From: Desulfobacteraceae bacterium
Lineage (GTDB): Bacteria; Desulfobacterota; Desulfobacteria; Desulfobacterales; Desulfosarcinaceae
DNA: 64,000 nt
NCBI GenBank assembly: GCA_050124755.1
Contig: JASFER010000001.1
Span: 2,391-66,390, forward strand
Direction: 5' to 3'
Shown here one piece after another: positions 7,653-47,518 of the stretch; positions within the stretch are counted from its first letter, which is position 1, and the number at the start of each line of letters is the position of its first letter. Under the pieces are notes generated by a model that worked only from the letters and a program-made list of their open reading frames with translations, did no database searches and was not told where the DNA came from. The position numbers and the translations under genes are program-made.

Positions 7653-7668
7653 GGAAATGACCTTTTTA

Positions 7669-30070: not shown

Positions 30071-30204
30071 CGTTGTGTCTCCCTTTAAAAAAAGTTGTTT
30101 ATGCTGCTGTTGGCTGTCTTTTATCAAGCCAGTCTATTACTAAAAATCATACATTTAAATAGTAATGCATTAATTAATCATGTAAAGATGGCGGGGCCAC
30201 TTTA

Positions 30205-30409
30205 TTGCATAAAAAAACCTGGTCTTCAGGGCCAGGTCTGATGCCATTGGTTTTGCCTTCTAATCAGGGTTCGGGGCGTATAACCTTATTGAAAGATGAA
30301 CATCGAACGCCCAACGTCGAACATCCAATGATGAGATCGCTTCGCTCCGCCATCTTATCAATCGACAGAATACCATGTTGGACGTTGGACGTTGGACGTT
30401 CGATGTTCA
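30205..30409 (+). repeat. Palindromic intergenic element, copy B (the most complete copy)
   Basis: The flank with its terminator hairpin spans 30205..30240. The left arm (30297..30328) and right arm (30378..30409) are complementary at 29/32 positions. The right arm is TTGGACG x3 followed by TTCGATGTTCA. The core is 49 nt (30329..30377). Confidence 0.85.
30211..30240 (-). terminator. Rho-independent terminator (minus strand) forming the distal end of element copy B
   Basis: The minus strand reads CAGACCTGGCCCTGAAGACCAGGTTTTTTT, an 8-bp stem followed by U7. It lies downstream of the ATPase gene that ends at 30524. Confidence 0.7.
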
Positions 30410-30523: not shown

Positions 30524-32926
30524 TTAGTCTTGGGGCACGGTGCGGCAGTGGGGGCAGAATCGCCAATCGTCGACCATGAATTTGCCGCACTTTTTGCACA
30601 GTCTGGTCACCGAAGCACCGCAATACGGGCAATAGGGATAGCGTTCTTCGAGAATGCTGTCGCAGTGCTCACAGGGAATTTCTATGGTGTTCTGGGGGCC
30701 GAATACCCGCAGCACTTCCTCACACGTGGTCATGCCGGCTTCAACCTTTCGAATGGCATCGTCCAGCAAGGTGGTCATGCCTGATTGCCGGGCTGAGCGC
30801 ATCAGCTCGGTTTCCGATGCATTGCTCCTGATCATGCGGCGCATCTCACTGTCCACAAGGAAGATTTCAAAGATGCCCAGGCGTCCTTTGTAGCCGCTGT
30901 CATGGCATTTTCGACATCCCGCGCCTTTTTGAGCTTTGATTTCGCGGTTATAAATTTTCAAGGCGTGGCGAACATGGGGCGGGGGCTCATCGTCGGTTTT
31001 GCAATGGGGACAAATGCGGCGAACCAATCGTTGGGCGATAATGCCGATCATGGCATCGGCGATCACATAGGATTTAATGCCCATGTCCAGCAGCCTGGTA
31101 ATGGAAGCAATGGCGCTGTTGGTGTGCAACGTGCTTAGCACCAGGTGGCCGGTCAAGGCTGCGTGAAAGGCCACCTCAGCGGTTTCAAAGTCGCGGATTT
31201 CACCCAGCATGATCACATTGGGATCCTGCCTCAAAATGGAACGCAACACCATGGAAAAGCTGAGACCGATCTTGTCTTTGACACTAACCTGCTCAGCCAT
31301 GTTCATGTAATATTCCACCGGATCTTCGATGGTGGTAAAATTTTTGGTAATCTTGGCGCCTTTGCGCAACAGCGAATACAGCGTGCTGGTTTTGCCGCTG
31401 CCTGTCGGGCCGGTGGTGAGTACGATGCCCTGGGGCATGTCGATGATGCGCATGGCTTTTTTAAGGTCTGCTTCTACGAGTCCGATATCGGCGACATCCC
31501 GAATGGCGGCGTTCTTATCCAGAATGCGAAAGACCACTTTTTCGCCGTTGATGGTGGGAAGGGTGGAGATGCGCATATCCACCATGCGCGAGGAGGTTTT
31601 GACGGTGATGCGCCCGTCCTGGGGCCGCCGTCGTTCGGCAATATCCAGGTCGCTCATGATTTTGATGCGCGATACCATGGGCATGTGTATATGCACGGGG
31701 ATATGCAGTTTGTCTTCCAGTAAGTCATCAATGCGATAGCGCACCATGGTATACTTGGTTTTGGGCTCGATATGGACATCAGAGGCCCCGTGCCGCAACG
31801 CATCGGAGATGATGGCGTTGACGATACGAATTGCAGGCGGTTGTTCCGTTGCTTTGAGGAGATCACCCAGGTCGGTGTGCTCATCATCTTCTTCAATGAT
31901 GATTTCAATGGTCTCGGTGGGGTCATCGATATCGATTTCTCCAACGACCTGTTCGAGTTGATCCTCTTCGCCGTAGATATCGGTCAATTTTTGGATGATC
32001 TCCTTTTGTGTCGCCACAACCGGTTGAACGGTCAGGCCGGTGATAAATTTGAGATCATCCAGCTTATTAAAGTCCGTGGGATCGGCCATGGCAACAATCA
32101 GCGTGCTGCCGGTCTTTTTGAGCGGCACCAAAATGTTCTTCTCGCAGACTTCTTTGGGGATCAATGCCGCCAGTGCTTCGGATACATTGAATTCATTTGG
32201 AGAAACGCGATGGATGCGACATGCGTTCTCGATCACTTTCAGTATGGTGGCTTCGTCCACCGCATCCATGTCCGCTAAAATTTTGGGCAACACTTTGTGG
32301 GTGCTTTTTTGAATACGCAACGCTTTATCCAACGCCTGTTGTTGAATATGGCCCTGGCGTACCAGGTGATTGCCCAGATGACTGTGGTGCGCATTGAGGA
32401 ACCGGCTCAGGCGCTTGAGCTCATTCTTCTGAGCGGATGTTTTCTGTTTCAGGGCTTTGTTCTCCTGAATCAGGTCGTACTGTTCCAAAGCCAGGCTCAC
32501 AGTTAATCGCAGGTCTTCGTCGTTCCAGGGTTTGGTAATAAATTTATAGACAGCGCCGTCGTTCACCGCCCCCATCACCGCATTCACATCCGCATAGCCG
32601 GTGAGCATGATACGAATGGTGGCCGGGTAGCGCTTTTTGACTTCCCGAAGCAAATCCGTACCGTTCATACCGGGCATGCGATGGTCGGAGATGACCACCT
32701 GAACCGGGTTTTCAGCCATAACGGACAGCGCTTGTGGTGCTGATTCGGCGGTCAGCAATCCATAGTTTTCCTGGCGGAAAATGCGCAGCATGGCCCTGAG
32801 AACGTGGGGTTCATCATCGACAAACAGAATCTGATATTTTTTGGGGGCAGCACCGGTCTGATCTTCATCCGAAACCGCCGGGGCGTCATGATCTTTATTT
32901 AAAAATAATGCGGCTAATCGCGACAT
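30524..32926 (-). CDS. REC-fused GspE/PilB-family secretion ATPase: REC + MshEN-like/T2SSE_N domain + AAA ATPase + C-terminal double zinc ribbon
   Basis: The REC domain has FVDDE, VVISDHRMPGMNG and KPWNDEDL. An MshEN-like motif is HLGNHLVRQGHIQQQALDKALRIQ. The Walker A is GPTGSGKTST, and the GspE tetracysteine is CPHC...CRKC. An extra tail reads CEHC..CPYC..CKKC..CPHC. Confidence 0.85.
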   Translation of the reverse strand: MSRLAALFLNKDHDAPAVSDEDQTGAAPKKYQILFVDDEPHVLRAMLRIFRQENYGLLTAESAPQALSVMAENPVQVVISDHRMPGMNGTDLLREVKKRYPATIRIMLTGYADVNAVMGAVNDGAVYKFITKPWNDEDLRLTVSLALEQYDLIQENKALKQKTSAQKNELKRLSRFLNAHHSHLGNHLVRQGHIQQQALDKALRIQKSTHKVLPKILADMDAVDEATILKVIENACRIHRVSPNEFNVSEALAALIPKEVCEKNILVPLKKTGSTLIVAMADPTDFNKLDDLKFITGLTVQPVVATQKEIIQKLTDIYGEEDQLEQVVGEIDIDDPTETIEIIIEEDDEHTDLGDLLKATEQPPAIRIVNAIISDALRHGASDVHIEPKTKYTMVRYRIDDLLEDKLHIPVHIHMPMVSRIKIMSDLDIAERRRPQDGRITVKTSSRMVDMRISTLPTINGEKVVFRILDKNAAIRDVADIGLVEADLKKAMRIIDMPQGIVLTTGPTGSGKTSTLYSLLRKGAKITKNFTTIEDPVEYYMNMAEQVSVKDKIGLSFSMVLRSILRQDPNVIMLGEIRDFETAEVAFHAALTGHLVLSTLHTNSAIASITRLLDMGIKSYVIADAMIGIIAQRLVRRICPHCKTDDEPPPHVRHALKIYNREIKAQKGAGCRKCHDSGYKGRLGIFEIFLVDSEMRRMIRSNASETELMRSARQSGMTTLLDDAIRKVEAGMTTCEEVLRVFGPQNTIEIPCEHCDSILEERYPYCPYCGASVTRLCKKCGKFMVDDWRFCPHCRTVPQD

Positions 32927-32928: not shown

Positions 32929-34335
32929 TTACCCCTTTGCCGCCGGCAGGTGAACCGTAAAGCGGCTGCCTTTGCCGGATTCGCTCTGCACCTTGATTTG
33001 TCCTGCATGCTTTGCAATCAGCTGATAGACCAAGTGGAGTCCCAGACCCGTCCCTTGCCCCACGGCTTTGGTTGTGAAAAAAGGATCAAATATTTTGGCC
33101 ATGTTTTCCGCGGCAATTCCGGTGCCTGTATCTATAATGCCGACAGCCACGCGGTCATTGGCGGTTCGGGTAGTGATCTCCAAGGTCCCCTCAGCGTCCA
33201 TGGCCTCGAGTGCGTTGACAATGAGGTTGAACCACACCTGGCTGATCTCTTGCGGGTATCCGATGATCATGGGGACCGGATGAAAGACCCTGTTGACCGA
33301 AATTCCGGGGGCCACGCGATTTTGAACGATGGTCAAGACAGCATCAATGCTTTCATGGACATTGATGGGTTCTTGCTGGTATTCGCCGGGACGTGCCGCC
33401 GTTTTTAAATCCTGAACGATTTTTTGGATGCGCTTGGCGCCGGTGAGGGACTCGGATATCAGGACGGGCAGGTCGGCCAGCAAGAACGCTCCATCCAGTT
33501 CGTTTTCTTTGGCTTCAATGGTTTTGCATTGGGATCGAATGGCCGATAAACATCCATTGTGGGCGTCATCGCCGCAAAGCGCCGTCAGATGCCGGTATTG
33601 TTGCATCAGGGCGTCAAGGTCATCCCCGTAATCCTTCAACGTGTTCAGGTTGCTGAGAATAAAGCCCAATGGATTGTTGATTTCATGAGCCATACCGGCC
33701 GACAATTGACCGATGGCGGCCATCTTCTCCTGTTGCATCATATGGGCGTGGGCGATTCGAATCTCTTCGGTTTTGTTTTGAACTTCAATTTCAAGATTAG
33801 CGGACAGGTTGCGGTATTTCTCTTCAGATCGGGCAAGCTGTTCCGCCTTGTTTTTAATTTCCGCATAAGATTCTTCCACCACTAAGCCGTGCAGGCCGGA
33901 TGTCAGCATGGTCTGATGTTTCAGGCGTATCAGCTGTTTGAGTAAATTTGCGCCGGCGCGGCTCTTTTCAATGATTCGCTCTTGAGCGTTGTCTGGAACG
34001 CGGACAGCCATGTACCCCATTACTTCCAACTCATATTCTATGGGAAGGAGCAGGAAGCGCACACCGTTACCCATTTTGATGGTCGTTTGGCCTTCCGGCC
34101 GGTCTTGCATAATTTTGGTTTCGAGTTTATCGGTCTGGCCGTGGCGCCAGGGTCCGAATTGATCGTGTATCGTGCCGTTTGCGGTATATAGCGCCCATTG
34201 CTCCGGCAGCAGCGGCGACAATTCATGGGTGATGCGCTCCAGCAAATCCTTGGGCAGCAGTTCACTGATTTGATACTCGCGATCAAAAGGCTCGACCTCG
34301 ATATGTTCACTTACAAAAGACGTCATCTTTATCAC
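32929..34335 (-). CDS. Cytoplasmic sensor histidine kinase with an uncharacterised N-terminal domain of about 170 aa, a coiled coil, HisKA and HATPase
   Basis: H-box GMAHEINNPLGFI, N-box NLIVNALEAM and G-boxes DTGTGI and GTGLGL are present. No TM segment is evident. A 2-nt gap separates it from the downstream ATPase gene. Confidence 0.85.
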   Translation of the reverse strand: MIKMTSFVSEHIEVEPFDREYQISELLPKDLLERITHELSPLLPEQWALYTANGTIHDQFGPWRHGQTDKLETKIMQDRPEGQTTIKMGNGVRFLLLPIEYELEVMGYMAVRVPDNAQERIIEKSRAGANLLKQLIRLKHQTMLTSGLHGLVVEESYAEIKNKAEQLARSEEKYRNLSANLEIEVQNKTEEIRIAHAHMMQQEKMAAIGQLSAGMAHEINNPLGFILSNLNTLKDYGDDLDALMQQYRHLTALCGDDAHNGCLSAIRSQCKTIEAKENELDGAFLLADLPVLISESLTGAKRIQKIVQDLKTAARPGEYQQEPINVHESIDAVLTIVQNRVAPGISVNRVFHPVPMIIGYPQEISQVWFNLIVNALEAMDAEGTLEITTRTANDRVAVGIIDTGTGIAAENMAKIFDPFFTTKAVGQGTGLGLHLVYQLIAKHAGQIKVQSESGKGSRFTVHLPAAKG

Positions 34336-34343: not shown

Positions 34344-34994
34344 TTATGGCTGCGGCGCAATGACGGACAGGAACTTTTCTTCCGTCAGTCCGTGCCGATC
34401 AGCCAGATCATAGCTTTGATCAAGTATTTTAAACATGCTTTTCAATGCCTGTACGAATGTCTGTCGCACACCACGGCCGTAAAGGGCGCTGCCGAACACC
34501 AGCGGGAGCCCCGTCGGTTTCCAGCGGCTGAGCACTTCGTCTTCGCTGACGATATGATTCAGATCCCGCTTATTGAATTGGATCACCAGCGGCAGGTTCA
34601 AGAAATCAAGTCCCACCCGTCCGGCATTTTTTTCCAGGTTGTCAAAGCTCTCAAAGTTGCTGATGGCTTGATTGATCTGAGAATCGGCAACAAAAATGAC
34701 GCCGTCCGCTCTGGACAGCACCGCTTTGCGCGTGGCGTCATGGGCCACCTGTCCAGGCACGGTGTATAATTTGATTTTAACCTTCAGCCCGTTGTTGCCT
34801 TTTATCAGCAGCGGCAGAAAATCGAAAAACAGCGTCCGGTCCCCCTTGGTTTCGAAAGCCATGAAGTCCCCGCAATGTTCGGCCTTCAGCATGTCGTGCA
34901 GTCGCATCAGGTTTGTGGTTTTGCCGCTAAGCGCAGGGCCGTAATACACGATCTTTGCCGTCAGACGATTTGCTTTGGAATCAAATTCGGCCAT
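34344..34994 (-). CDS. MglA-type Ras-like small GTPase
   Basis: G1 is GPALSGKTT, the MglA-specific G3 is LYTVPGQV, G4 is FNKRD, and RTLFFDFLPL is present. The start was chosen at M28 of the track ORF (after GGAAAG). An 8-nt gap separates it from the kinase gene. Confidence 0.8.
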   Translation of the reverse strand: MAEFDSKANRLTAKIVYYGPALSGKTTNLMRLHDMLKAEHCGDFMAFETKGDRTLFFDFLPLLIKGNNGLKVKIKLYTVPGQVAHDATRKAVLSRADGVIFVADSQINQAISNFESFDNLEKNAGRVGLDFLNLPLVIQFNKRDLNHIVSEDEVLSRWKPTGLPLVFGSALYGRGVRQTFVQALKSMFKILDQSYDLADRHGLTEEKFLSVIAPQP

Positions 34995-35280
34995 TTGTAT
35001 TCTTTCCACTTTTCTTGTGGGCCGGAACTGTTTTTCAGGTCGTAGGCAATTAAGGCATTTTTCACAAGGATGCATCAGGTTCGCTGTTTCCGCCCGCGGT
35101 AGCGATCTTCATACATCTATATTGGTCGTTCACGGTAAAGACTTTAACAATGAACTTGAAATAGACGGCCTGCGGTTTTGAAATCAGTGCTTAAGATTTG
35201 CCGCAAGGAGACGATGATATTGAAAGACAATTATTTACTTTTTACAGACTTCAGAAATAAAACAGCAGGAGTTATGGCGC

Positions 35281-35798: not shown

Positions 35799-36614
35799 CT
35801 AGGGCATCAGCGTTATGATAACGCCTTTCCCGTTGAATTTTCCCGACAAAGGTACGATCGTTGCGTTGTAATCTGATGCCTGTCGGGTTTTACCTTCATG
35901 CAGGACTTGTTGTCCTGTGTCCATGGCTTTTGATACGGCTCCCATCACATCCGACTCAAAATATTGGCTGAGCGGTACACCGATTTTCATGCTTGTGCCG
36001 TTCACGATGCTTTTGGCCATCTCGTTGGCCAGCACAATAACACCGTCATTGTCAACGCCCAGTACGGCAATCGGCATTTTCTCAAGAATCGCATCCGATA
36101 ACTCCAAGGCGTGGTTTTTGATTGCGATTTCCCTTGTTCGCGCTGCAACCGCATCTTCGAGTTTGTCATTGATCTGTCGCAGCTCCCGGTTCTGCCGAAT
36201 GACGGTTTCATCCAGATGCCGGTTGGCTTTGATCAAATCGTACTGGTCCAACGCCTGTCGAATTTCTAGTTTAAGATTATGGTCATTCCAAGGTTTGAGA
36301 AAAAACTTGTAAATATGGCCTTTATTGATCGATTCGGTGATCGTATCCACTTCCGTGTAACCGGTTAAAATAACGCGCAGCATATCCGGATACTTCTCTT
36401 TCACTGCAGCCATAAGTTCGGTGCCGCTCATCTCAGGCATGCGTTGATCCGAAATAATCAGATGAACTTCATTTTCCTCAAGCAGCTTAAAGGCCTCCTC
36501 CGTGCTGGAGGTCAATAACAAATGATAGTTCTCTTTGCGCAGCAGGCGTCTCAGCGCCTGCAAAATACTGGGTTCATCATCTACGCAGAGGATGGTGTGT
36601 CGAATCTCGCCCAT
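35799..36614 (-). CDS. Response regulator, REC + coiled coil + PAS-like domain
   Basis: Motifs CVDDE, LIISDQRMPEMSG and YKFFLKPWNDHNL are present. The C-terminal region MPIAVLGVDNDGVIVLANEMA is PAS-like. Confidence 0.8.
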   Translation of the reverse strand: MGEIRHTILCVDDEPSILQALRRLLRKENYHLLLTSSTEEAFKLLEENEVHLIISDQRMPEMSGTELMAAVKEKYPDMLRVILTGYTEVDTITESINKGHIYKFFLKPWNDHNLKLEIRQALDQYDLIKANRHLDETVIRQNRELRQINDKLEDAVAARTREIAIKNHALELSDAILEKMPIAVLGVDNDGVIVLANEMAKSIVNGTSMKIGVPLSQYFESDVMGAVSKAMDTGQQVLHEGKTRQASDYNATIVPLSGKFNGKGVIITLMP

Positions 36615-36620: not shown

Positions 36621-37532
36621 TTATTCCTCCATCAGTATTTGACACGCCTGTTTGATATCATCCTTTAATTCGGGGATCCATTGATCGGCTGAAGTGATTT
36701 GGTGCTTCAGCAGCCGACGCGCGCCGACGCTGATCGGTGGCCATTCCTTGGCTGGTGAACCGTTTTCCAAATAGACATGCGACAGCGCATCCGCCGCGTG
36801 TACGATGTACACCAGGTTGTCCGCGGAACCATTTGAGGTGCATGTGTGATGGCCGCCGATAACGCTGGGCATGGGATCGGGCAGATGCCATCGTCTGGCC
36901 AGTTGGGCGCCGAGATCCGTATGATTCAATGGAAAGTGGCGATGTTCGGCTTCCCAGAAAGTGAGTTGCTGGCCAAGCATTGTTTCCCACACCGCCTGAA
37001 ACCGGTCGCTAAAATAGTGGGCCATGACGATTTTGCCGATATCATGAATGATTCCGGCGGTGAATACTTCTTCACGATAGTGGTGGCCGGTCTGCTGATC
37101 CAGATATTTGCTGATCACGGCAACACCGATGGCATGGCGCCAAAACTCCCATATATCGAATCCTTTTATTGTCTTATTCATTTTCAGAGCATTGATCACA
37201 TCAATGGATAGGACAGCGTTGCGCACCGTATTGAAGCCGAGCAGCATCAAGGCGTGTTGCACACTGGAAACCCTGGAATTTAAGCCGAAAAAGGCTGAAT
37301 TGACCAGCTTCAACATCTTGGTCACAATCGATTGATCATATTGGATGATTTCAGCCACATCCTGGGCAGGCATGTTGATGTCCTGCAGGGTGCGGCTGAG
37401 TTTCATGGCCACTGTGGAAAGGGTGGGCAACTCGTGAACCGCATCGAGTTGCCGCAGGAATTTTTCTGCGCTTAACGCCTTTTCGCTTGCAGCGGCATCG
37501 TGGATATTGCTGATCCCGGTTTGAGGTGTCAT
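36621..37532 (-). CDS. HDOD domain protein
   Basis: Motifs LPTLSTVAMKL and IIHDIGKIV and the overall HDOD layout are present. Its ATG overlaps the stop of the upstream REC-HD-GYP gene by 4 nt. Confidence 0.8.
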   Translation of the reverse strand: MTPQTGISNIHDAAASEKALSAEKFLRQLDAVHELPTLSTVAMKLSRTLQDINMPAQDVAEIIQYDQSIVTKMLKLVNSAFFGLNSRVSSVQHALMLLGFNTVRNAVLSIDVINALKMNKTIKGFDIWEFWRHAIGVAVISKYLDQQTGHHYREEVFTAGIIHDIGKIVMAHYFSDRFQAVWETMLGQQLTFWEAEHRHFPLNHTDLGAQLARRWHLPDPMPSVIGGHHTCTSNGSADNLVYIVHAADALSHVYLENGSPAKEWPPISVGARRLLKHQITSADQWIPELKDDIKQACQILMEE

Positions 37533-38935
37533 TTGGTTTTCTCCGTCGTTTCGTTCCCTGCGGGTATGGAAACCACCAGTTTATCGGGAAGCATGCCTCT
37601 TTCGCCGATGCTTTGAATGGTTTGGGCCGTTGTTTCTTTCAGCCTTGTGCCTTTGGTGAGCAACAAGCGTCCGTCATTGAGACGCAGATCTTCCATCAAG
37701 ACCATCCCGGCTTTAATTGCTTTCAGGCTGATGGCATGGGAAGGATCGATATTCCTGGATTTACGAATCACCTTTATCAAGGCGGTCACCACGTCCATAT
37801 CGTATTTGCGGTTGCTTTCGATAAGCAGTTTTTTCTCCGCCGCCTCTTCGATGGTCACCTCCGGATCATCGGTGACGGTAAAACTTTTCCAAACGGAAGC
37901 ATCAAAATGCCGGCGGGTATAACGGACGAGTTTGCGCGCATCCCGCGGCCAGGTTGACGTGATACCCAGATAATCCGAAACGGCTAAAATAATTCTGGAA
38001 CCCAGCGGTATCTGGGATTTTTTGAGGCCGTTCGGAAATCCTTGGCCATTGACATATTCATGGTGGAAAAGAACGATTTCTCCCACGTCGGCCAGCTTAT
38101 CCACGCTGTCAAGGATAACCGATCCAATAACCGGATGTTCTCTGAACAAGCGGTACTGCGCGTCACTCATTTGTTTGACGTCTTTGCCCTGCAACTCGTC
38201 AGGCAACCCGAGCAATCCGATATCATGGATCATGCCGGCCATTTCGATCTTATCCAGTTCGGCTGCGCTCAGAGGGAACTCCTCCGCCACCTTGCGCGAC
38301 AGTTGGGCAACCTGCCGCATCTGTTTACCCAGAGCCGGTTTTACGCTTTCTACAAGGGCCGTCAGCAACCGAATGGAATCCATGAAGCTGGCTTCCAGCA
38401 TGCGGTTGATTCTTTCCAAGGCCTTGTTTTGTGCAATGACTTGGGTGGTGCGCTCTTTGACTTTGCATTCCAGATTTTTATTGAGGTCACTCAGTTTTGC
38501 ATTTTGCGCCGCGGTCAGCGCCGTCAGACGCTTGTTCTCAGATACCAGTTCATAATGCTCCAAAGATTGCGCCACCTGAAGCAACAGATCGTTATCGTTC
38601 CAGGGCTTGGTCAAATAGCGGTGAATTTCACCTTTGTTGACCGCCTGTATGACGGCCTCCAAATCAGAGTATCCCGTCAGCAAATAACGGATGGCCTCCG
38701 GGCAGATGGCTTTGGATTTTTCCAGGAACTGGGCCCCGTTCATTTCGGGCATGCGCTGATCCGAAATGATCATTGAAACCGGTTTTTCAAGCTGGTGGAG
38801 TTTTTCAAGGCCTTTCAGGCCGCTTTCGGCTGTCAGAATGTGATACCCTTCTTTGCGAAACAAGCGGTGCAGGGCTCTGGTGATGGCTTTTTCGTCATCG
38901 ACCAGCAATAAAGTATGTTCTTTTTGTAATGCCAA
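37529..38935 (-). CDS. Response regulator, REC + HD-GYP-type domain (GFP variant) + C-terminal extension of about 110 aa
   Basis: Motifs LVDDE, MIISDQRMPEMNG, TKPWNDNDL and MIHDIGLLGLP are present. HHEYVNGQGFPNGLKK shows GFP in place of GYP. Confidence 0.8.
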   Translation of the reverse strand: MALQKEHTLLLVDDEKAITRALHRLFRKEGYHILTAESGLKGLEKLHQLEKPVSMIISDQRMPEMNGAQFLEKSKAICPEAIRYLLTGYSDLEAVIQAVNKGEIHRYLTKPWNDNDLLLQVAQSLEHYELVSENKRLTALTAAQNAKLSDLNKNLECKVKERTTQVIAQNKALERINRMLEASFMDSIRLLTALVESVKPALGKQMRQVAQLSRKVAEEFPLSAAELDKIEMAGMIHDIGLLGLPDELQGKDVKQMSDAQYRLFREHPVIGSVILDSVDKLADVGEIVLFHHEYVNGQGFPNGLKKSQIPLGSRIILAVSDYLGITSTWPRDARKLVRYTRRHFDASVWKSFTVTDDPEVTIEEAAEKKLLIESNRKYDMDVVTALIKVIRKSRNIDPSHAISLKAIKAGMVLMEDLRLNDGRLLLTKGTRLKETTAQTIQSIGERGMLPDKLVVSIPAGNETTEKTK

Positions 38936-39019
38936 AATATCACTCCACGACCATCAGGGCTGTGCACCTGAAATACATTAAGTTGGATATTATAGCGACC
39001 GCTGCCGTATGTCTCATCA

Positions 39020-40747
39020 TCAGCAATCTTCCAGCCTGTCGAAAGCGTCTGTCGGTATTTTTATGGTAAAGGTGGTCCCCTTGCCCACCGTGCTGTCCGC
39101 TTCTATGTTACCGTTATGTTTTTTCACGATATTATAGGCAATATTCATCCCCAAACCGGTCCCTTTGCCCACGTCTTTGGTGGTAAAAAAGGGATCGAAG
39201 ATTTTACGCAGATTCTCTTTTGGTATGCCGCAACCGGTGTCGCTGATCTTGATTTCCACATGGCCGTTCAACTGTTGTGTTTTGACGACAATCTCTCCCT
39301 TTTTTTCGATAGCCTGGGCGGCATTAACCAAAATGTTCATAAATACTTGATTGAGTTGTTGTGGATAACCTTTCACCGGCGGAATGTCGCCAAGATCCTT
39401 CTTCACTTTGGCTTTATATTTGATTTCGTTGTTGACCACATTTAATGTGGACTCCAGCCCTTTATTGATATCAATAGATTTAATTTTGTCTTCGCCGGGA
39501 TGGGCGAAATCTTTCAGATCCATGACGATTTTTTTGATACGGTCGGTGCCTTCCCGACAATCGCCGATCAGATCGTTGATATCGTCCAGCAAAAATTCCA
39601 GATCGATATCATTTTCAACGGCAGATATCTTTTGAGCACTTTGCATTAAAGGTTCAGGAATCCGGTCGTTAAATTCAACACTGCCCAGATCGGTTATCAA
39701 TTGACGATATTTTTCAATCAAATGGGCGATGTCGCTTTGATAATCCACGAGCGTTTTTAAATTGCTGCTGATAAAACCTGTGGGATTATTGATTTCGTGG
39801 GCTACACCGGCCGCAAGTTGACCGATGGAAGCCATTTTTTCGGAATGAAGCATCTGGGCCTGTGTATTTTCCAGTTGTTTCAGGGTGTTTTTCAGTTCGG
39901 TGTTCTGGTTTTCGATCTTGGCCGTGTTGGCCATCAATTGTTCATTCAACAAATGGATTTGTTCGGTCTTGCGCCGGTCCTCGCTGACATCCTGGGCAAG
40001 CACGACCACCTTAAATAGATCATCCAACTCATTTCGTACGGGCTGGCAGCTGACTTTTAGAAATGTCTCTTCGCCATTGCCACTTTTGACGACAACCAGC
40101 TCGTTTGCCTCGGAGCCGTTTTCAAAAACATGGCTCACCAAAGACTGAAGACCTTCATCCCGAAGGAAATTGTTTTCCGAGATGGCGTGATCTAAACAAT
40201 GTTTGCCCACGACCTCTTGCGGACGGCATTTCAGTCGATTGGTAAACGCTTTATTGACAGTGACAATCTTCATATCCCGGTCCAGGGAGACGATCTCCTC
40301 GCCAAGAGAATCAATGACAATCCGCAACTTGTTGCGGCTTTCGATAATCGTTTTGGCCATGCTATGATAGCGCTCCTCAAGATCGATCACACGTATGCCG
40401 TTCATCACACGGGCCTTGAATTCTTCAAGGTCGAATGGTTTTGGGATGTAGTCATCGGCGCCGGCCCTGAATACATCCACAATGTCTTCCTTGCGGTTTT
40501 TGGCCGTCAGCATGATGAAATAGATATATCTTTTAAAGGCTTCTGAACGAATCTTTTTGCACAGCTCCAATCCATTCAGTCCCGGCATCACCCAATCGCA
40601 GATGACAATCTTGGTCTTTTTGGCATTGAGGATTTCCCAGGCCTGTTGCCCGTCTTCAGCTTCGATTATCGTATGGCCCATTGCCTCCAGTGCATTTTTC
40701 AGCATGAGGCGGAAAATATTTTCATCTTCGACAATTAAAATTTCCAT
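39020..40747 (-). CDS. Hybrid histidine kinase, REC + PAS + HisKA + HATPase
   Basis: Motifs ILIVEDE, IVICDWVMPGLNG, H-box GVAHEINNPTGFI and G-boxes DTGCGI and GTGLGM are present. The ORF is open to 40759; the start MEILIVEDE was preferred. Confidence 0.85.
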   Translation of the reverse strand: MEILIVEDENIFRLMLKNALEAMGHTIIEAEDGQQAWEILNAKKTKIVICDWVMPGLNGLELCKKIRSEAFKRYIYFIMLTAKNRKEDIVDVFRAGADDYIPKPFDLEEFKARVMNGIRVIDLEERYHSMAKTIIESRNKLRIVIDSLGEEIVSLDRDMKIVTVNKAFTNRLKCRPQEVVGKHCLDHAISENNFLRDEGLQSLVSHVFENGSEANELVVVKSGNGEETFLKVSCQPVRNELDDLFKVVVLAQDVSEDRRKTEQIHLLNEQLMANTAKIENQNTELKNTLKQLENTQAQMLHSEKMASIGQLAAGVAHEINNPTGFISSNLKTLVDYQSDIAHLIEKYRQLITDLGSVEFNDRIPEPLMQSAQKISAVENDIDLEFLLDDINDLIGDCREGTDRIKKIVMDLKDFAHPGEDKIKSIDINKGLESTLNVVNNEIKYKAKVKKDLGDIPPVKGYPQQLNQVFMNILVNAAQAIEKKGEIVVKTQQLNGHVEIKISDTGCGIPKENLRKIFDPFFTTKDVGKGTGLGMNIAYNIVKKHNGNIEADSTVGKGTTFTIKIPTDAFDRLEDC

Positions 40748-41012
40748 AGACGCTTCCATTAAAAAGCAATCTTATAAATGTGTTGCACCAATAAGTAGAA
40801 TACTATTCAAATTTCAGGGCTTGGGATTCAATTCGGGAGAGGAGATGTTCAGAAAGATTTGCAGATTCAAGTTGACTGATTGTTTTTTCGTATAGCTTTG
40901 TACTCAACTAGTGAACACAAAATTATCACAACTTCTGTTTCCTAACATCGACCTTTTTTGCGTTAACTTTAGCGCATTCTGTTATCTGTTATGAAACCGG
41001 TTATCGATGGGC

Positions 41013-43622
41013 TCAAGCCGCCGAGCGCTTGTCCAACGCTCCGCGAATGGCGGCAGACAGCTTATCCCGGACCAAAGGTTTGTACATCAAAGCCCGGGCG
41101 CCGATATTTGAAGCCATCTGTTCGCTGATATTTGCACTATATCCGGTACATAAGAGAACAGGCAGGTCGGGACGAATTTTCATCATCTCCTTGGCCATAT
41201 CAGGGCCGGCCATCTGAGGCATGGTGACATCGGAAATAACCAGATCAAATTGTTCCGGAGCATTGCGGAACTGTTCCAGCGCCGCGACGGGATTGTTGTT
41301 AGTCGTCACATGGTATCCCATTTTGGAGAGCAATTGAGATATCATGCGCGTTAGAAGCGATTCATCATCAACAAAAAGAATGTGTTCGCCTCCTCCGACA
41401 ATGGCGTTTGGCTGTTGTTGGACCTGTAAATTCTTTATTTTAACGGCCGGCAGGTAAATGTTGAAAGTTGATCCCTGTCCGACAACACTGTCGACACAAA
41501 CGGCCCCGTTTAAACTTCTGACGATACCCTGGACCACCGAAAGCCCCATTCCGGATCCTTCGCCCTGGGCTTTAGTGGTAAAGTAAGGATCAAAGATGCG
41601 CTCCAAGGTTTCCGCCGACATGCCGTGCCCGGAGTCCGCGACCTTGAGCAATGCATAGTGACCTTCTTTCAGACTTGTCTCACAAGGCGCATTGCCGGGA
41701 GTAATATCGATCATTGAAAGAGCGATGGTCAGGACACCGCCGCTATCTCGCATGGCATGGCTGGCATTGGTGCAAAGATTGACGATGATCTGATGCACTT
41801 GCGTCGGATCGGCAAGAACAGTGGGATTGGCATCCAACTCGGTTCGGATCTCGATGTTCGTGGGCAGCGTTGCGCGCATTAGATTGCGGCTCTCTTTTAC
41901 GATGTTGGTCAAGTTCAGTGGATGTTTTTTAATTTCGGTTTGGCGGGCAAAAGTCAATATTTGGCGCACAAGCTCGGCCGCGCGCTGGGCGCCCGCGATA
42001 GCCTGTTGAAGGTTATCTTGCTGGCTGGTATCCGTGATCGCATCTTCCAGGGCCAATTCACAATATCCAATGATGGCATAAAGAATATTGTTAAAATCAT
42101 GTGCAATTCCTCCGGCCAGCGTGCCCAGAGCCTCCATTTTGTGGGCTTGCCGCAGCTGGGTCTCCAATTTATGTTTTTCATCCTCAATCTTTTTGCGATC
42201 GGTGATGTCAATAAGGGCGCCGTCAATATAAGCGGTCCCTGTTTTTTGGTCCACAGTGCGATTCAGATGGACGGCGCCCCATATGGGCGTGCCGTCTTGG
42301 CGTTTAAAACGAAGTTCCAGGCGTTGTATGTTATCCGATGCCTTAAACCAGTCCATCATATAATCGTATTGTTCCGGATGGTCATATAACCGGCAAATGG
42401 GCACATTCATCATCTCATCCTGGGAATCGTAACCGAAAATGGAAACCATTTTGGGATTGGCAAACAGAAAGCGCCCATCAATGGTTCTTCGGAACAGACC
42501 AATGGGAATATTGTCCTGCAGCGAACGCAGTTGGGCCTCGCTCTTCTGCAGCGCATCGGCCATTTGCCGGCGTTCTTCGATCTGTTCTTGCAGATTTTCA
42601 TTGGCATTTTTCAAATCCCTGGTGCGCCGGCGGACTTTGGACAAAACCTTATTGAAAGCCTGGGCGAAGTAGAGAAATTCGGCGTGCCGGACCTCGGCGG
42701 TGTCCAGATCCGAGTGCCCATCGGTGGCAGCGATATGATGGGCATTTTTAGCCAGGGCATCCAGTGCACAAGTGACTCTTTTCAGAATCAAAAAAGAGAT
42801 CGTAAAGGTCAAAATCAAAAGCGGTATGCACAGCAAAACCAGTTTTGTCACCATTGACCACCGATGATGTCGGTATTGTTGGTTGTCAACGATAAAATAC
42901 ACAGACGGAAATTCCTGCATGCCCATAAGCTGGGGATAGCGCCCATCCGAAGCGTGCTGATGTTGATTTCGGGTCAGTTCGGAAGTGATCCAGTGCGATG
43001 TCATGTACAACGGCCGATGGGTGAACACGTCTGTTAAGTGCTCCTCTTGCCTGTAAACAAGGGATAGATCGCTGAACGCCGCCAACAGTTCCAAACAATG
43101 CGGGTCCTTGCTCAGATCATAAACCCCCACGGCATGTCCTTCAACCCGGTCTTGATGGATGATGGGCGTAAAATAGACAAAGGTATGCTGATTAACCGCC
43201 TTCTGGGTTACGCCACCCGGCTGCAGTGCAAGCAGCTGCGTATCATTTAGAAATCCATGATCGTCACCGGGTTGCGGATAATAGCGGCCCTCCGGGCTGC
43301 GCACGTAAAAGGTGCTGCCCATGGACTGGGGGTAGAACGCATTGATGCTTTCGGCAATTTTAGAGTGCATCCCGAGAAACAGCGCAATCCTGATATTGTT
43401 GTTGAACCGGATCTCTTCGACCCTGGAATGGGTGTAATTCAGCCTGTTGGTTAAATGCAGGCGCAATTCCGCTTGTTGCGCATTGATCCGACCGATCTGC
43501 TCCTGTTGCATGGACTGGTCCAGCATTGCGAACAAAAAACCGATCACAACGGCCAAGGAGAGGCCTTCCAGGAGAAAGACCATGACGAGTAAAAAACGTC
43601 TGAAAGTCGGCGGTCTTTTCAT
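41013..43622 (-). CDS. Membrane sensor hybrid histidine kinase: periplasmic domain between 2 TM segments, HAMP-like region, PAS, HisKA, HATPase, REC
   Basis: TM segments lie at the N-terminus and near residue 260. The H-box is GGIAHDFNNIL, the G-boxes are DSGHGM and GSGMGL, and the C-terminal REC has LVISDVTMPQMAG. Confidence 0.85.
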   Translation of the reverse strand: MKRPPTFRRFLLVMVFLLEGLSLAVVIGFLFAMLDQSMQQEQIGRINAQQAELRLHLTNRLNYTHSRVEEIRFNNNIRIALFLGMHSKIAESINAFYPQSMGSTFYVRSPEGRYYPQPGDDHGFLNDTQLLALQPGGVTQKAVNQHTFVYFTPIIHQDRVEGHAVGVYDLSKDPHCLELLAAFSDLSLVYRQEEHLTDVFTHRPLYMTSHWITSELTRNQHQHASDGRYPQLMGMQEFPSVYFIVDNQQYRHHRWSMVTKLVLLCIPLLILTFTISFLILKRVTCALDALAKNAHHIAATDGHSDLDTAEVRHAEFLYFAQAFNKVLSKVRRRTRDLKNANENLQEQIEERRQMADALQKSEAQLRSLQDNIPIGLFRRTIDGRFLFANPKMVSIFGYDSQDEMMNVPICRLYDHPEQYDYMMDWFKASDNIQRLELRFKRQDGTPIWGAVHLNRTVDQKTGTAYIDGALIDITDRKKIEDEKHKLETQLRQAHKMEALGTLAGGIAHDFNNILYAIIGYCELALEDAITDTSQQDNLQQAIAGAQRAAELVRQILTFARQTEIKKHPLNLTNIVKESRNLMRATLPTNIEIRTELDANPTVLADPTQVHQIIVNLCTNASHAMRDSGGVLTIALSMIDITPGNAPCETSLKEGHYALLKVADSGHGMSAETLERIFDPYFTTKAQGEGSGMGLSVVQGIVRSLNGAVCVDSVVGQGSTFNIYLPAVKIKNLQVQQQPNAIVGGGEHILFVDDESLLTRMISQLLSKMGYHVTTNNNPVAALEQFRNAPEQFDLVISDVTMPQMAGPDMAKEMMKIRPDLPVLLCTGYSANISEQMASNIGARALMYKPLVRDKLSAAIRGALDKRSAA

Positions 43623-43624
43623 TT

Positions 43625-44677
43625 TTAACGGTTTGTTGCTCCTGCTTCGGCCAAATCAGTTGATGCCACGTTTTGGTATAAATTGTCCGCCCCGCTGATC
43701 AACTCGAAGGGCGGCTCAAAACCCACCAGTTCCGCCGCCTTAAGGTTGACATCCACGGAGAGCTTGACACCCACATCCATGGGCAGGGCGGCAGGCGGGG
43801 TTCCTTCAAGGATTTTAACGGCATATTGGGCGCACTGGCGGCCGAAGCGTTCGGCATCTTTGCCGATCCCCATCACCAGGCCCTTTTGGATATTGGTGGG
43901 ATCTCCTGCACTGACAATCCGGTGTTCCAAAAACGCCGCCATAAACACGTCAAATTCTTTGGTAAAAGTGTTGGAGGTCTGAACAAAAAAGGCATCTACC
44001 CGGGGGCAGACCGCCGCCAGGGCCGATTGCATATTGCTGCGGATTTGATCCCGCGGAAAGCGAACCCGGTTCTCATCCCTGAGGGGGAATCCCTCGTGGA
44101 TGAATTTAAAACCAATTTCTTTGGATAATTTGCGAATCTGGCGGATTCCGGCTTCATGACTGGGCGAACCTTTCAGATAGATCATGCCCAGGCTTTTGAA
44201 CGAGACAAAATGATGCATCAGGCGAACGACTTTGGTGTAATATTCGGGGGTTTCCACGCCTGTATAATTGGCTCCGGAACTCTTCCAGTCTTTGACGATA
44301 CCGGCATTTTGAGGATCGCCGACAATGGTATACACGATGGGCGTTTTTTTCTCGGCTTTGACCATTCGTTTGGTGGAATGGGTGCCGATGGTAAAAATCA
44401 GATCGATATCCGATCTTGCGGCCAGTTCGTTGATCTTGGATTCCAAGGCGCCGATATCGCTGCGGGCATTAAAATCATCCACAATGTCAAAATCGGCCTT
44501 ATTACCTAATATGCTCAAATTACTGATAAAAGCGTCATGGGCCTGCTGAAAGGGCAAAAATTGCTGATGTTGAACAACAGCAATCGTGTAACGGGGGCCC
44601 GCTTGCACCGCTCCTGCAATTAAAACCAGGATCAGCGTTAGAAGGATGTAAAATGGACGGTGTCTTCCTTTTTCCAT
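43625..44677 (-). CDS. Periplasmic ABC-type substrate-binding protein ('ABC_sub_bind' family) without cognate permease or ATPase genes
   Basis: It has a signal-peptide-like N-terminus. The pattern IAVVQHQQ...IFTIGTHSTK...GANYTGV is typical of this family. A 2-nt gap separates it from the downstream sensor kinase gene. Confidence 0.6.
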   Translation of the reverse strand: MEKGRHRPFYILLTLILVLIAGAVQAGPRYTIAVVQHQQFLPFQQAHDAFISNLSILGNKADFDIVDDFNARSDIGALESKINELAARSDIDLIFTIGTHSTKRMVKAEKKTPIVYTIVGDPQNAGIVKDWKSSGANYTGVETPEYYTKVVRLMHHFVSFKSLGMIYLKGSPSHEAGIRQIRKLSKEIGFKFIHEGFPLRDENRVRFPRDQIRSNMQSALAAVCPRVDAFFVQTSNTFTKEFDVFMAAFLEHRIVSAGDPTNIQKGLVMGIGKDAERFGRQCAQYAVKILEGTPPAALPMDVGVKLSVDVNLKAAELVGFEPPFELISGADNLYQNVASTDLAEAGATNR

Positions 44678-45158
44678 AGCATGTCTCCAATTTCATGAAT
44701 ACTAAAGTAAATCTGACACATATGGGATGAGACCCAAGTCTCTCCACAATATGGCGTCGATAATGAATCCGTGTGAAGTGTGGCCGGTGGAGTGTGATAT
44801 GCGTCAACTGCCAATCGAAAGGAGATGCGATTCAACTGTTTTTATTTTACAACCAAGCCATCGGCCATCAATGGTTTTTTCTTAAGTTTTTTTACTAACC
44901 CACGAAAAGTCCGGCAGCAGGCGTTCGGTCAAATGATTAAGTTTGTAACATTATAAAAATTTTTAAAGTAACATGATTTATGATCGATAGTTCTATCAAG
45001 TTGGTTTAAGTGATCTATTCGGCTTGAAGCTCTATGTGTTTTGCCACTCAAATGCCCTATCCGCAGTTATTTTGAAATTGAGCACAGATCAACTTTCTAC
45101 TGGTTAAGCCGATTCAGCCGCCATAAAACGGCTAATAATAACGCCATAGGAGAAGTCT

Positions 45159-46307
45159 ATGCCTAATATCTTGATCGTGGATGACAATCTGCTGGGACAA
45201 AATATGATGTGCCGGGTTTTAAGTCGAAAAGGCTATGATACAATGTCGGCATCCGACGGGCAGACTGCTCTGGATATAATAATTGCCAAAACACCGGATT
45301 TGGTCCTGTTGGACATTAATATGCCGGGTATGGACGGATTTGAAGTTACCAGCCGGATAAAAAGCAATCCCGAAACAAGCAGCATACCGGTTATCTTGAT
45401 CACCGGCCTTGACACCGTCGACAACCACGTCAGGGCATTGGATATGGGCGCGGACGATTTTATTTCGAAAACCGCCGCCCATGCCGAAATCATTGCCAGG
45501 GTGCGCGCGCATCTCAGAATCAAGGAATTGAACGACCGGATAAAAGCATACCAGCAAAATCTTGAAACACAGGTTGCGCTCAGAACCAAGCAGTTGAACC
45601 ACGCCTTGGAACAACTCAGAGATGCATCGCTGGATACCATTTTCAAACTGACCGCGGCCTCTGAATATCGGGACAACGAAACCGGTGCCCATATCAAGCG
45701 CATGAGCCATTACTCGGCCCTTATCGCCCAAAAAATGGAATTGAACGGCAAGACGGTGGAAACCATTCTTTATGCCGCCCCCATGCATGATATCGGCAAA
45801 ATCGGAATACCCGACAAGATCCTGTTAAAGCCCGGCAAACTGGACACCGAGGAGTGGGAGGTCATGAAAAAGCACACCACCATCGGGGCCGATATTTTGA
45901 AAGGATCCAATATCGGATTTGTCCGAATGGGTGAAACCATCGCGCGCACCCATCATGAAAAATGGGACGGCAGCGGTTACCCGTATGGCTTGAAGGGGAG
46001 ACAGATCCCATTGGCCGGACGCATCGTCGCACTGGCGGATGTTTTCGATGCCTTGACATCCAAACGGCCATACAAAGAGGCCTTTTCCATCGAAAAATCC
46101 AACCGGATCATTTTGGAAGGTCGCGGCAGGCACTTTGACCCGGACGTCGTAGATGCGTTTTTCTCCGTTCAGGATGCGATCTTGAGGATTAAAGAGACCT
46201 ATAAAGATGACCTGGAAAGCTTAATGTTAAAAATGAATCATTTGTCGGAGGCCATTTTCAAGGAATTGCCTCACGGCCAAGCCAATTCAGAAAGAGTATC
46301 CATATGA
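45159..46307 (+). CDS. Response regulator, REC + HD-GYP (RpfG family)
   Basis: Motifs ILIVDDN, LVLLDINMPGMDG, MHDIGKIGIP and HHEKWDGSGYPYGLKG are present. Confidence 0.9.
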   Translation: MPNILIVDDNLLGQNMMCRVLSRKGYDTMSASDGQTALDIIIAKTPDLVLLDINMPGMDGFEVTSRIKSNPETSSIPVILITGLDTVDNHVRALDMGADDFISKTAAHAEIIARVRAHLRIKELNDRIKAYQQNLETQVALRTKQLNHALEQLRDASLDTIFKLTAASEYRDNETGAHIKRMSHYSALIAQKMELNGKTVETILYAAPMHDIGKIGIPDKILLKPGKLDTEEWEVMKKHTTIGADILKGSNIGFVRMGETIARTHHEKWDGSGYPYGLKGRQIPLAGRIVALADVFDALTSKRPYKEAFSIEKSNRIILEGRGRHFDPDVVDAFFSVQDAILRIKETYKDDLESLMLKMNHLSEAIFKELPHGQANSERVSI

Positions 46308-47518
46308 CCCGGACCATTCTTTTTGTGGATGAAGAAAAATTCGTTCACAAAGCCCTCAAACGCAGTTTCCGAAAGATGCGCCAGGAGTGGGACATGCGTT
46401 TTGCCGCCGGCCCTTCAGAGGCCTTGGAGATTCTGGGCAATGAACCCATGGAGGTGATTGTCACCGAAACGGTTTTTCAAAACCAGAGCGGCTTGGATTT
46501 CTTGAAAATGGTCCGCCAGGGGCACCCTAACAGCGTACGCATCATCCTTTCCGGTTATTCGGACCAGGATGTGGTGCTGAAATCCGTTGATCTGGCCCAT
46601 CAATACCTGGCCAAGCCATGTGAGGATGATGACCTCAAAGCGACCATCAGCAGGGCCTTTATGATTAAAAAGTTGATAAGCCACCAAGGTCTCAGAGAAA
46701 TTGTATCCCGAATCGATTCATTGCCCACCCTGCCGGCGGTCTACATCGAATTGATGGAAGAACTCAAAACCGAAGATGCCTCCATTGAAAAGATCGGTGA
46801 TATCATCTCAAAGGATATTGGGCTTACCGCCAAGATATTGAAGATGGTGAACTCATCCTTTTTCGGCCTGCGCCAACAGATCACCTATCCAGCCAAAGCC
46901 GTAAGCATGCTGGGGCTCGACCTGGTCAAAGCCATGGCGCTGACGTCCGGGACTTTCGACAAATTCAAGCATTTGAAAGTCCCCGGATTCTCATTGGAGC
47001 GGATGTGGGAGCACGCCATGCTCACCAGTGCTTTTGCCAAAATTATCGCACAAGAAGGCGGGATCGACCGCCGGGGCGCCGATACGGTCTTTATGGCCGG
47101 CCTGCTGCATGACATCGGTAAATTGTTAATCGCCGCGCATCTTCCGGACAGCTTTGCCGTTATCAACAAACTGGCCGAAAAAATATCGATCCCCATCGTT
47201 GAGGCCGAAGAAAAGGTCATCGGTACAAACCATTCATGCATCGGCGCTTACCTCCTTGGCTTGTGGGGATTACCTGAGGCCATTCTCGATGCGACGGCAT
47301 TTCACCACAGTCATCATAACTGGTCGGAGGTAAAACTGAACCCAGCCGTCATCATCCATATCGCCGATGCATTGGCCGAATCCGGCGATAATCTCCATCA
47401 ACCCCAGGGAGTTATAGAAGGACTGAACTATGAATACATAGAAAAAGCCGGACTTCTGGCAGACCTGGAAGAGTGGAAAGCTAAATGCGTTAACTTTGTA
47501 ACAAATGGTACGATCTGA
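46304..47518 (+). CDS. Pseudo-receiver + HDOD domain protein
   Basis: The REC-like N-terminus reads FVDEE and VIVTETVF, so Glu occupies the phospho-acceptor position. The HDOD part has LPTLPAVYIEL and LLHDIGKLL. Its ATG overlaps the upstream stop (ATGA). Confidence 0.8.
   Translation: MTRTILFVDEEKFVHKALKRSFRKMRQEWDMRFAAGPSEALEILGNEPMEVIVTETVFQNQSGLDFLKMVRQGHPNSVRIILSGYSDQDVVLKSVDLAHQYLAKPCEDDDLKATISRAFMIKKLISHQGLREIVSRIDSLPTLPAVYIELMEELKTEDASIEKIGDIISKDIGLTAKILKMVNSSFFGLRQQITYPAKAVSMLGLDLVKAMALTSGTFDKFKHLKVPGFSLERMWEHAMLTSAFAKIIAQEGGIDRRGADTVFMAGLLHDIGKLLIAAHLPDSFAVINKLAEKISIPIVEAEEKVIGTNHSCIGAYLLGLWGLPEAILDATAFHHSHHNWSEVKLNPAVIIHIADALAESGDNLHQPQGVIEGLNYEYIEKAGLLADLEEWKAKCVNFVTNGTI

Follow-up and report, generated by a model that had tools for sequence, protein, structure and literature searches.

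HDOD genes beside HD-GYP-family regulator genes: two pairs of overlapping genes, separate in origin, in a Desulfobacteraceae genome

Two pairs of overlapping genes, each encoding a REC-HD-GYP-type response regulator followed by an HDOD protein, lie close together in a 64,000-nucleotide stretch of a Desulfobacteraceae genome (GenBank assembly GCA_050124755.1). This stretch, henceforth the window, is part of contig C1 (69 kb) of an assembly (G000) of 6.43 Mb in 484 contigs that is 93% complete and 4.7% contaminated. The assembly falls in the same family (Desulfosarcinaceae, Thermodesulfobacteriota) as a Desulfatitalea genome. Pair A occupies the minus strand (37529..38935 and 36621..37532) and pair B the plus strand (45159..46307 and 46304..47518), and both share the single 69-kb contig with a short HDOD remnant at 7.5 kb. 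The four open reading frames are present as described in the original prediction, a reading made from the letters of this DNA, and at both junctions an ATGA forms a 4-nt stop/start overlap. The domain calls were likewise correct: Pfam finds REC and HD_5 in both upstream genes and HDOD in both downstream genes, the HD_5 and HDOD profiles overlapping on identical residues. A scan for promoters and terminators gave no signal above shuffled controls.

The first gene of pair B (45159..46307, plus strand) encodes a canonical REC-HD-GYP response regulator of 382 residues with Pfam matches to REC (E 2e-28), HD_5 (PF13487, E 2.6e-32) and HD (PF01966, E 1.7e-20). The protein aligns with PmGH (PDB 4MCW) across the whole HD-GYP domain (E 1.6e-61) and has eight of eight metal ligands, including the third-metal glutamate, plus the substrate lysine and the GYP motif (E174, H178, H210/D211, K214, H239, H265/H266, G273-Y-P and D294). 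It is predicted to be an HD-GYP phosphodiesterase of cyclic di-guanosine monophosphate (c-di-GMP), and an active-looking one. The second gene (46304..47518, plus strand), whose start overlaps the stop of the first, encodes 404 residues comprising an N-terminal receiver (REC E 6.5e-13) and an HDOD domain (PF08668, E 1.4e-55, profile positions 1-195 of 196). Where a receiver has its phospho-acceptor aspartate, this N-terminus has glutamate (VTETVF), while the acidic pair, the serine and the lysine are retained, so that the pseudo-receiver named in the original prediction is borne out. Aspartate-less receivers are a described class (PMC4395418).

The first gene of pair A (37529..38935, minus strand) encodes 468 residues with REC (E 4e-19), an HD-GYP-family domain (HD_5, PF13487, E 2.9e-27) and a C-terminal extension of about 120 residues. 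When its ligands are compared with those of the PmGH-like pair B enzyme, the HD pair, a later histidine and HHE are retained, and probably the last aspartate too. Four key positions have changed: the first metal-binding histidine to glutamine, the third-metal glutamate to alanine, the substrate lysine to leucine, and GYP to GFP. The full HD-GYP ligand set with lysine and GYP is thus incomplete in this regulator. Since glutamine or cysteine at the first-histidine position is common to orthologues with 64-77% identity, the change is a stable trait of the regulator and not decay. The label REC-HD-GYP, at first given to both regulators, therefore fits the canonical pair B protein and fits pair A, with no first metal-binding histidine and with GFP for GYP, only in part; judged from its residues, the latter is an HD-GYP-family variant whose phosphodiesterase activity is doubtful.

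Pfam matched no family in the C-terminal extension of the pair A regulator. Its AlphaFold2 model (pLDDT, the predicted local distance difference test score, 77) has helices there and then a small beta/alpha domain at residues 399-456. By its sequence this module looks like a DUF3391-like small beta domain of the sort usually found before HD-GYP domains, Pfam giving nothing significant. The C-terminus (37532..37951, minus strand) contains the motif GMVLxEDLRLNDGRLLLTKGTxL, which resembles the N-terminal module of a 408-residue HDOD protein encoded elsewhere in the genome (contig C48, 25250..26476; GQILDEDVHDVNGRLLLSRGQPI).

The second gene of pair A (36621..37532, minus strand), starting within the ATGA that ends the first, encodes a stand-alone HDOD protein of 303 residues (PF08668, E 5.9e-55, profile positions 1-195 of 196). 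It aligns with PDB 3HC1 (E 1.1e-28), with the WxH, HD, H and HH motifs aligned and conserved. In the 3HC1 structure, two irons are bound by five histidines and one aspartate (PMC12075610), and this di-metal site is complete in the HDOD proteins of both pair A and pair B.

The REC-HDOD subfamily of pair B has more than 558 relatives. From these we kept 80 loci in at least 16 phyla and scanned them with hidden Markov models made from the genome's own domains, a subset being verified with Pfam; the resulting statistic refers to this subfamily only. At 53 of the 80 loci, the gene directly downstream of REC-HDOD, in the same orientation, encodes a REC-HD_5 protein of about 385-400 residues. The placing of this family beside an HD-GYP-family regulator is thus non-random and evolutionarily maintained, as had been suspected. 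The downstream regulators at the 53 loci have lost every metal ligand, with SQ for HD and YQxK for HHE, and they retain the DGxGxP and IPLGxRILK motifs. Six loci (in Nitrospirota, Nitrospinota, Planctomycetota and Hydrogenedentota) also have a canonical REC-HD-GYP gene directly upstream, some with a 4-nt overlap, which is the order of pair B. A hybrid kinase gene lies directly upstream of REC-HDOD in 24 of 85 genes. Of 90 family members, 83-90 retain the individual HDOD metal ligands and 81 have the acceptor aspartate in the receiver; acceptor glutamate is confined to a Desulfosarcinaceae clade, and glycine is found in the copies on contigs C346 and C17 of the genome and in one other member. 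Downstream of the pair B HDOD gene, the window has a DUF255/thioredoxin-like gene. The arrangement of kinase, REC-HDOD and dead REC-HD-GYP is thus absent there, and pair B shares with these loci the HDOD protein family but not the gene order.

Pair A is conserved on a smaller scale. When its regulator was searched against 400 genomes of the phylum, 29 loci were returned, at seven of which, in six taxonomic families, an HDOD gene lies directly downstream; these seven include most of the closest full-length matches to the regulator, C-terminal extension included. A search with the pair A HDOD found 648 homologues, and gene contexts were read for seven. Four (39-71% identity; one labelled Planctomycetaceae) have the order REC-PAS kinase, REC-HD_5 (452-468 residues), HDOD and REC (271-279 residues), one has the REC-HD_5 gene two genes downstream, and two are without an adjoining HD-GYP gene. 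In a relative of the same genus (G007), the order kinase, REC-HD-GYP, HDOD, REC-PAS, Ras-like GTPase, kinase and REC-MshEN-ATPase is that of the window, with overlapping genes whose proteins are 38-64% identical to the window's. The suggestion that the REC-HD-GYP-then-HDOD order recurs thus holds for pair A in several families of the phylum, and pair A is an old, vertically kept cassette across several Thermodesulfobacteriota families.

The genome has 16 full HDOD genes and 19 HD-GYP-family genes. Six of the 16 adjoin an HD-GYP gene, where 0.10 would be expected (Poisson P 1.6e-9), and P is 1.7e-4 if only three independent events are counted. Contig C346 carries an intact REC-HD-GYP gene and a REC(Gly)-HDOD gene with a 44-116-nt spacer, and contig C17 has a similar pair. 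On contig C4 (5214..8702, minus strand) an HDOD gene (287 residues) and a REC-less paralogue of the pair A regulator (294 residues) are followed by an HDOD-GAF gene (535 residues), the first two being in one reading frame split by one TGA and 20 codons. Adjacency was also counted genome-wide in two other samples of five near-complete or complete genomes each. The first, five near-complete relatives with 40 full HDOD genes, gave two directly adjacent to HD-GYP against 0.16 expected for direct neighbours, namely a pair of the A type in G007 and a 1073-residue sensor-HD-GYP protein with HDOD in G023. Three more HDOD genes of these relatives lie one gene away from HD-GYP, in the coaE arrangement described below, and all five are within 2 kb.

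HDOD genes of this genome and of related loci have other settings as well. Contigs C72 (16318..17967, 549 residues) and C190 (6520..8130, 536 residues) encode apparent HDOD-GGDEF fusions, recognized by GGEAF/GGEEF motifs read by eye; in both, the histidine of the HD pair is replaced by lysine or glutamine (LLKDIG, LLQDIG), and the HDOD metal site looks degenerate. Chemotaxis operons contain HDOD genes beside or fused to CheD (contigs C340, 4024..4872, and C317, 5761..6888; loci L153 and L154), the L154 protein being a 443-residue CheD-HDOD by Pfam and the N-terminus of the C317 protein CheD-like by eye. CheD/chemotaxis is a second recurring HDOD setting besides c-di-GMP enzymes.

Domain trees separate the histories of the two pairs. 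The HD-GYP tree splits a clade made of the pair A regulator and its paralogues on C4 and C97 from all others, including pair B (support 100/99); the HDOD tree joins pair B to the C346 and C17 proteins (100/100) and sets the pair A HDOD apart. The HDOD domains of pairs A and B are about 30% identical. The idea that one module arose from the other by duplication is thereby ruled out.

The remnant had been taken for a third, decayed HDOD copy. It is indeed an HDOD fragment (7533..7652, minus strand), an internal 120-nt piece (approximately residues 301-340) of a REC-HDOD gene lying between rdgB (6764..7426) and coaE (7953..8564), and the open reading frame that holds it matches the last 39 HDOD profile positions (158-196, E 2e-6). 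Its identity to the pair B HDOD is 29/40 (72.5%), and to the orthologues in the relatives G002 and G004 it is 31/40 and 30/40. Descent as a copy of pair B is rejected, as these orthologues at the ancestral locus are equally close or closer. Eight relatives in the same genus and three in two other genera, eleven in all, have a full REC(Glu)-HDOD orthologue of about 400 residues flanked by coaE and rdgB, and a stand-alone HD-GYP gene comes just past coaE. Two metagenome contigs show the same ancestral arrangement. The window keeps that neighbour, a canonical HD-GYP protein of 220 residues (8674..9336, plus strand; HD_5 E 1e-30), one gene from the ancestral REC-HDOD locus across coaE, as in G007, G012, G023 and the metagenome contigs. 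Between rdgB and coaE, the window's REC-HDOD gene is reduced to the 120-nt fragment, abutted by a dispersed repeat. On this synteny the fragment is the destroyed original gene at an ancestral solo site: an ancestral stand-alone gene rather than a decayed third module.

The dispersed repeat, of about 190 bp (7656..7850), abuts the 5' break of the remnant, and this copy is possibly the agent or marker of the gene's destruction. It gives 49 blastn high-scoring segment pairs on 38 contigs of the genome, with other window copies at 30201..30374 and 20923..21024. Wherever examined it lies outside long open reading frames. Strong hairpins are predicted in the repeat, which also contains short direct repeats (CGTTCGATGTT), and a comparison with Rfam gave no match.

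The HDOD of pair B is sister to a second copy in a congener, G006 (100/100), and both sit inside the G002/G004 ancestral-locus clade (100/99). Inheritance of pair B from the three-gene cassette of Nitrospirota, Planctomycetota and other phyla is rejected, since the HDOD nests among the coaE/rdgB-locus genes of its own genus. In ten relatives, the pair B regulator has orthologues at 12 loci (51-76% identity), and no HDOD was seen in the flanks of these 12 loci, one of which is on a contig ending 0.3 kb downstream. A metagenome scan found ancestral-locus copies only and no further pair B junction. At the second G006 copy, the regulator leader (window 44999..45121) and the last 60 nt or so of the regulator gene are kept and the coding region between is deleted. 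Contig C247 encodes a regulator with 92% identity to the pair B protein, behind which the HDOD gene is cut to its first 15 or so codons and has lost its start codon, and the HD-GYP gene of the pair B-type module on C17 has an in-frame TAA. Pair B is thus a recent, lineage-specific re-pairing that is decaying on either side. A copy of the resident REC(Glu)-HDOD gene, at home between coaE and rdgB, was placed directly behind a canonical REC-HD-GYP gene in the lineage of this genome. The original copy was then destroyed, leaving the 7.5-kb fragment, and the new module, now found on other contigs and in one congener, spread and later lost one partner or the other in different copies.

Pair A is part of a longer set of genes on the minus strand. 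Directly upstream is a REC-PAS-HisKA-HATPase kinase gene by Pfam (39020..40759), in orthologous position in G007 and loci L148-L150. A REC-PAS protein of 271 residues (35799..36614; REC E 9e-23 and a weak PAS match) is encoded 6 nt downstream of the HDOD gene. Next come a Ras/MglA-like GTPase (34344..35075; Pfam Ras E 2.6e-5, MglA-like by sequence), a histidine kinase (32929..34335; HisKA/HATPase) and an 800-residue REC-MshEN-T2SSE ATPase (30524..32926), with T2SSE (PF00437) at E 9e-128, MshEN (PF05157) at E 1.2e-21 and REC at the N-terminus. This distal order is the same in G007 and L148. The Ras/Arf-like GTPase gene holds the same position, between the REC-PAS gene and the histidine kinase, in G007. 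The terminal gene of the operon encodes a PilB-like ATPase with a C-terminal double zinc ribbon, kept in G007 and L148. With MshEN N-terminal to T2SSE, the protein is predicted to be an MshEN-type c-di-GMP receptor ATPase. MshEN is reportedly a c-di-GMP receptor domain, and a c-di-GMP-dependent output of the pair A cassette is therefore plausible.

Upstream of the pair A operon and divergent from pair B is a two-gene unit on the minus strand (41013..44677), which also precedes the cassette in locus L151. It encodes an ABC-type periplasmic binding protein (43625..44677; ABC_sub_bind E 3.5e-28) and a PAS hybrid histidine kinase (41013..43622; PAS/HisKA/HATPase/REC), and the two are candidate sensors for either regulator. 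Elsewhere in the genome, on contig C97 (8237..10943), a REC-HD-GFP paralogue of the pair A regulator (385-392 residues) is encoded directly upstream of motA/motB-like stator genes. In three relatives (L148-L150, positions 1..2450) the paralogue and stator genes form a trio that diverges from the pair A cassette, which thereby gains a connection to motility.

How might the paired proteins act? A functional partnership between them is likely. We favour, on balance and with doubt remaining, the reading that the window holds two independently evolved operonic HD-GYP/HDOD pairings in which HDOD is a contact-acting accessory or sensor subunit of HD-GYP-fold regulators. The HDOD protein, with its di-metal site, would contact active or dead HD-GYP-fold response regulators and would tune or relay their output to c-di-GMP-dependent targets, with no second hydrolytic step. 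The glutamate receiver of pair B would render its HDOD protein phosphorylation-independent, and the ATGA overlaps would provide co-translation in a partnership that need not be obligate. Contact is favoured over a second catalysis because the partner is often dead, because the pair B enzyme should itself reach GMP, and because the REC-HDOD protein DVU0330 of D. vulgaris is inactive on pGpG and other nucleotides. The comparison of loci also suggests that what HDOD is partnered with is the HD-GYP fold itself and not the hydrolysis of c-di-GMP. The suggestion that HDOD is a stoichiometric partner or modulator of hydrolysis survives in part: the pairing is maintained, whereas the usual partner is catalytically dead, so that modulating c-di-GMP hydrolysis cannot be the general role, and the separability of the pair B genes with their normally unpaired orthologues argues against an obligate stoichiometric complex. 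In a wider form, which we consider unlikely, HDOD proteins with an intact di-metal site would be the missing partner subunits of HD-GYP-fold regulators, heteromeric in many phyla, HDOD contributing a metal- or redox-sensing or catalytic site and the HD-GYP fold nucleotide binding and phospho-control.

Several observations weigh against a contact-acting partnership. Four-base overlaps are common in bacterial operons generally. A REC gene of about 275 codons follows the pair A HDOD in six of the seven contexts, and also in G007, and is therefore a steadier neighbour of this HDOD than the HD-GYP gene. Each pair B gene survives the loss of its partner, and orthologues of both are normally unpaired. 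Contigs C17, C247 and C346 are compositional outliers, with 46-47% G+C against 51.8 ± 2.5% for the bin and tetranucleotide distances at the 84th-98th percentile; they may have been acquired or may derive from a different organism that shares the bin. The second sample consists of five complete genomes that belong to other families of the phylum and contain 36 HDOD genes, not one of them within 3 kb of an HD-GYP gene; the HDOD/HD-GYP link is therefore subfamily-specific and not HDOD-wide. The expected enrichment of adjacency was accordingly found in this genome and its relatives and not in that second sample.

Several of these points suit an explanation by shared wiring, in which the genes are parallel branches of one multi-kinase phosphorelay, co-transcribed, and the proteins never touch and have separate targets. 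Every cassette contains kinases and further receiver proteins. With an acceptor aspartate in 81 of 90 family members and a hybrid kinase upstream in 24 of 85 genes, REC-HDOD and dead REC-HD-GYP could be two substrates of one kinase; the steadiness of REC-PAS beside the pair A HDOD and the separable partners of pair B agree with this. However, the pair A HDOD has no receiver and that of pair B has an acceptor glutamate, so neither is a normal kinase substrate and both must bind something. The link of HDOD to the HD-GYP fold moreover recurs in three gene orders and in unrelated HDOD subfamilies, and fusions of HDOD to EAL (PMC2952852) and, by eye, to GGDEF (contigs C72 and C190) suggest direct action on c-di-GMP enzymes. 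We regard shared wiring without contact as a serious possibility that probably does not hold.

A catalytic role would cast HDOD as a metal-dependent phosphohydrolase removing the pGpG or other nucleotide left by the phosphodiesterase. Its basis is the five-His/one-Asp site, intact in both window HDODs and near-invariant in the family; pGpG hydrolysis was proposed for the EAL-fused HDOD by Seshasayee et al. 2010 (PMC2952852), and the isolated HD region of DVU0330 has weak activity on bis(p-nitrophenyl) phosphate (PMC4114195). Yet DVU0330 is inactive on c-di-GMP, pGpG, c-di-AMP, cAMP and cGMP (PMC4114195), and the third-metal glutamate present in the pair B HD-GYP enzyme is associated with hydrolysis all the way to GMP (bioRxiv 10.1101/2021.11.05.467447). 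The commonest partner, a dead HD-GYP protein, would yield no product, and the pair A regulator is without its first histidine ligand. Two-step hydrolysis thus strikes us as improbable. That the adjacency is a meaningless accident of segmental duplication or rearrangement in a signalling-rich genome, or of several strains binned together, is highly improbable and largely refuted by cross-genome conservation. In its favour are the lineage-specific nature of pair B with its decaying copies, the odd composition of the contigs that carry the extra copies, the abundance of such genes in the genome (16 HDOD, 19 HD-GYP) and the second sample, where none of 36 HDOD genes is adjacent. Against it stand six adjacent genes where 0.10 would be expected (P = 1.7e-4 even with three independent events), a pair A order that persists where the proteins are only 39% identical, the HD-GYP-family neighbour of HDOD at 53 of 80 loci (at least 16 phyla), and the presence of both pairs and the remnant on one 69-kb contig.

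HDOD is among the commonest bacterial signalling domains without known function, with 16 genes in this genome alone. Here HD-GYP-family regulators have remained the neighbours of two unrelated HDOD subfamilies; one such link reaches at least 16 phyla, and one pairing has recently formed anew in this lineage. In place of a vague domain annotation there are now concrete pairs of proteins that lend themselves to testing. The MshEN c-di-GMP receptor ATPase predicted in the pair A operon is a candidate physiological read-out. If HDOD proteins are indeed partner subunits of HD-GYP-fold regulators, this would be the first general biochemical role for HDOD, and a two-subunit c-di-GMP signalling device would have been assembled at least three times: in pair A, in pair B and in the cassette of REC-HDOD and dead HD-GYP.

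The papers examined bear out the statement that HDOD has no established biochemistry (PMC4114195, PMC12075610). A full-text search, with subscription journals outside its coverage, found no description of a conserved HDOD/HD-GYP gene pairing. The nearest relatives of the individual proteins are known. Pair B's regulator shares the architecture of RpfG and all the metal ligands, the lysine and the GYP motif of PmGH (4MCW); the literature examined mentions no HDOD partner of RpfG, PmGH, PA4781 or the D. vulgaris enzymes. The pair A regulator differs from the RpfG family in its four changed key positions and its extra C-terminal domain. GsmR of X. campestris and DVU0330 of D. vulgaris are, like the pair B HDOD, REC-HDOD proteins of about 400 residues, and DVU0330 retains the HD residues (PMC4114195). 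The pair B HDOD differs from them in having glutamate rather than aspartate as acceptor, and a conserved HD-GYP-family neighbour is not reported for GsmR or DVU0330 in the literature examined.

Precedents for action by contact come from regulators of both folds. The degenerate REC-HD-GYP proteins HnoD and NosR are reported or proposed to work through protein contacts (bioRxiv 10.1101/2021.11.05.467447; PMC12570481). In HnoB/HnoD of S. oneidensis and NosR of Burkholderia, as for the usual neighbour of the pair B family, a dead HD-GYP regulator is a partner in a multi-regulator kinase network; unlike in the HDOD pairs, the partner there is an EAL enzyme or unknown, with no HDOD, and the window for its part has no dead-HD-GYP neighbour. 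SadB of Pseudomonas, a YbaK-HDOD protein, serves as an adaptor in the proteolysis of AmrZ; its HDOD domain binds protein and neither binds c-di-GMP nor shows enzymatic activity (PMC12075610). SadB has, however, lost three of the five histidine ligands and its pocket is occluded, whereas the window HDODs keep a complete metal site.

The nearest known analogue of the conserved operon association of HDOD with HD-GYP is the EAL-HDOD fusion class. Such fusions are common: Seshasayee et al. 2010 (PMC2952852) counted 128 among 1805 EAL-only proteins, and CdgJ/VC0137 and ZpdA/VC0515 of V. cholerae are examples of the class; the role suggested for its HDOD is metal regulation or pGpG hydrolysis (PMC2952852, PMC12607878). 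Both in these fusions and in the window pairs, HDOD is coupled 1:1 to a class of c-di-GMP phosphodiesterase. The window pairs differ from the fusions in that the class is HD-GYP, the connection is made by overlapping operon genes and not by fusion, and the partner is often impaired or dead.

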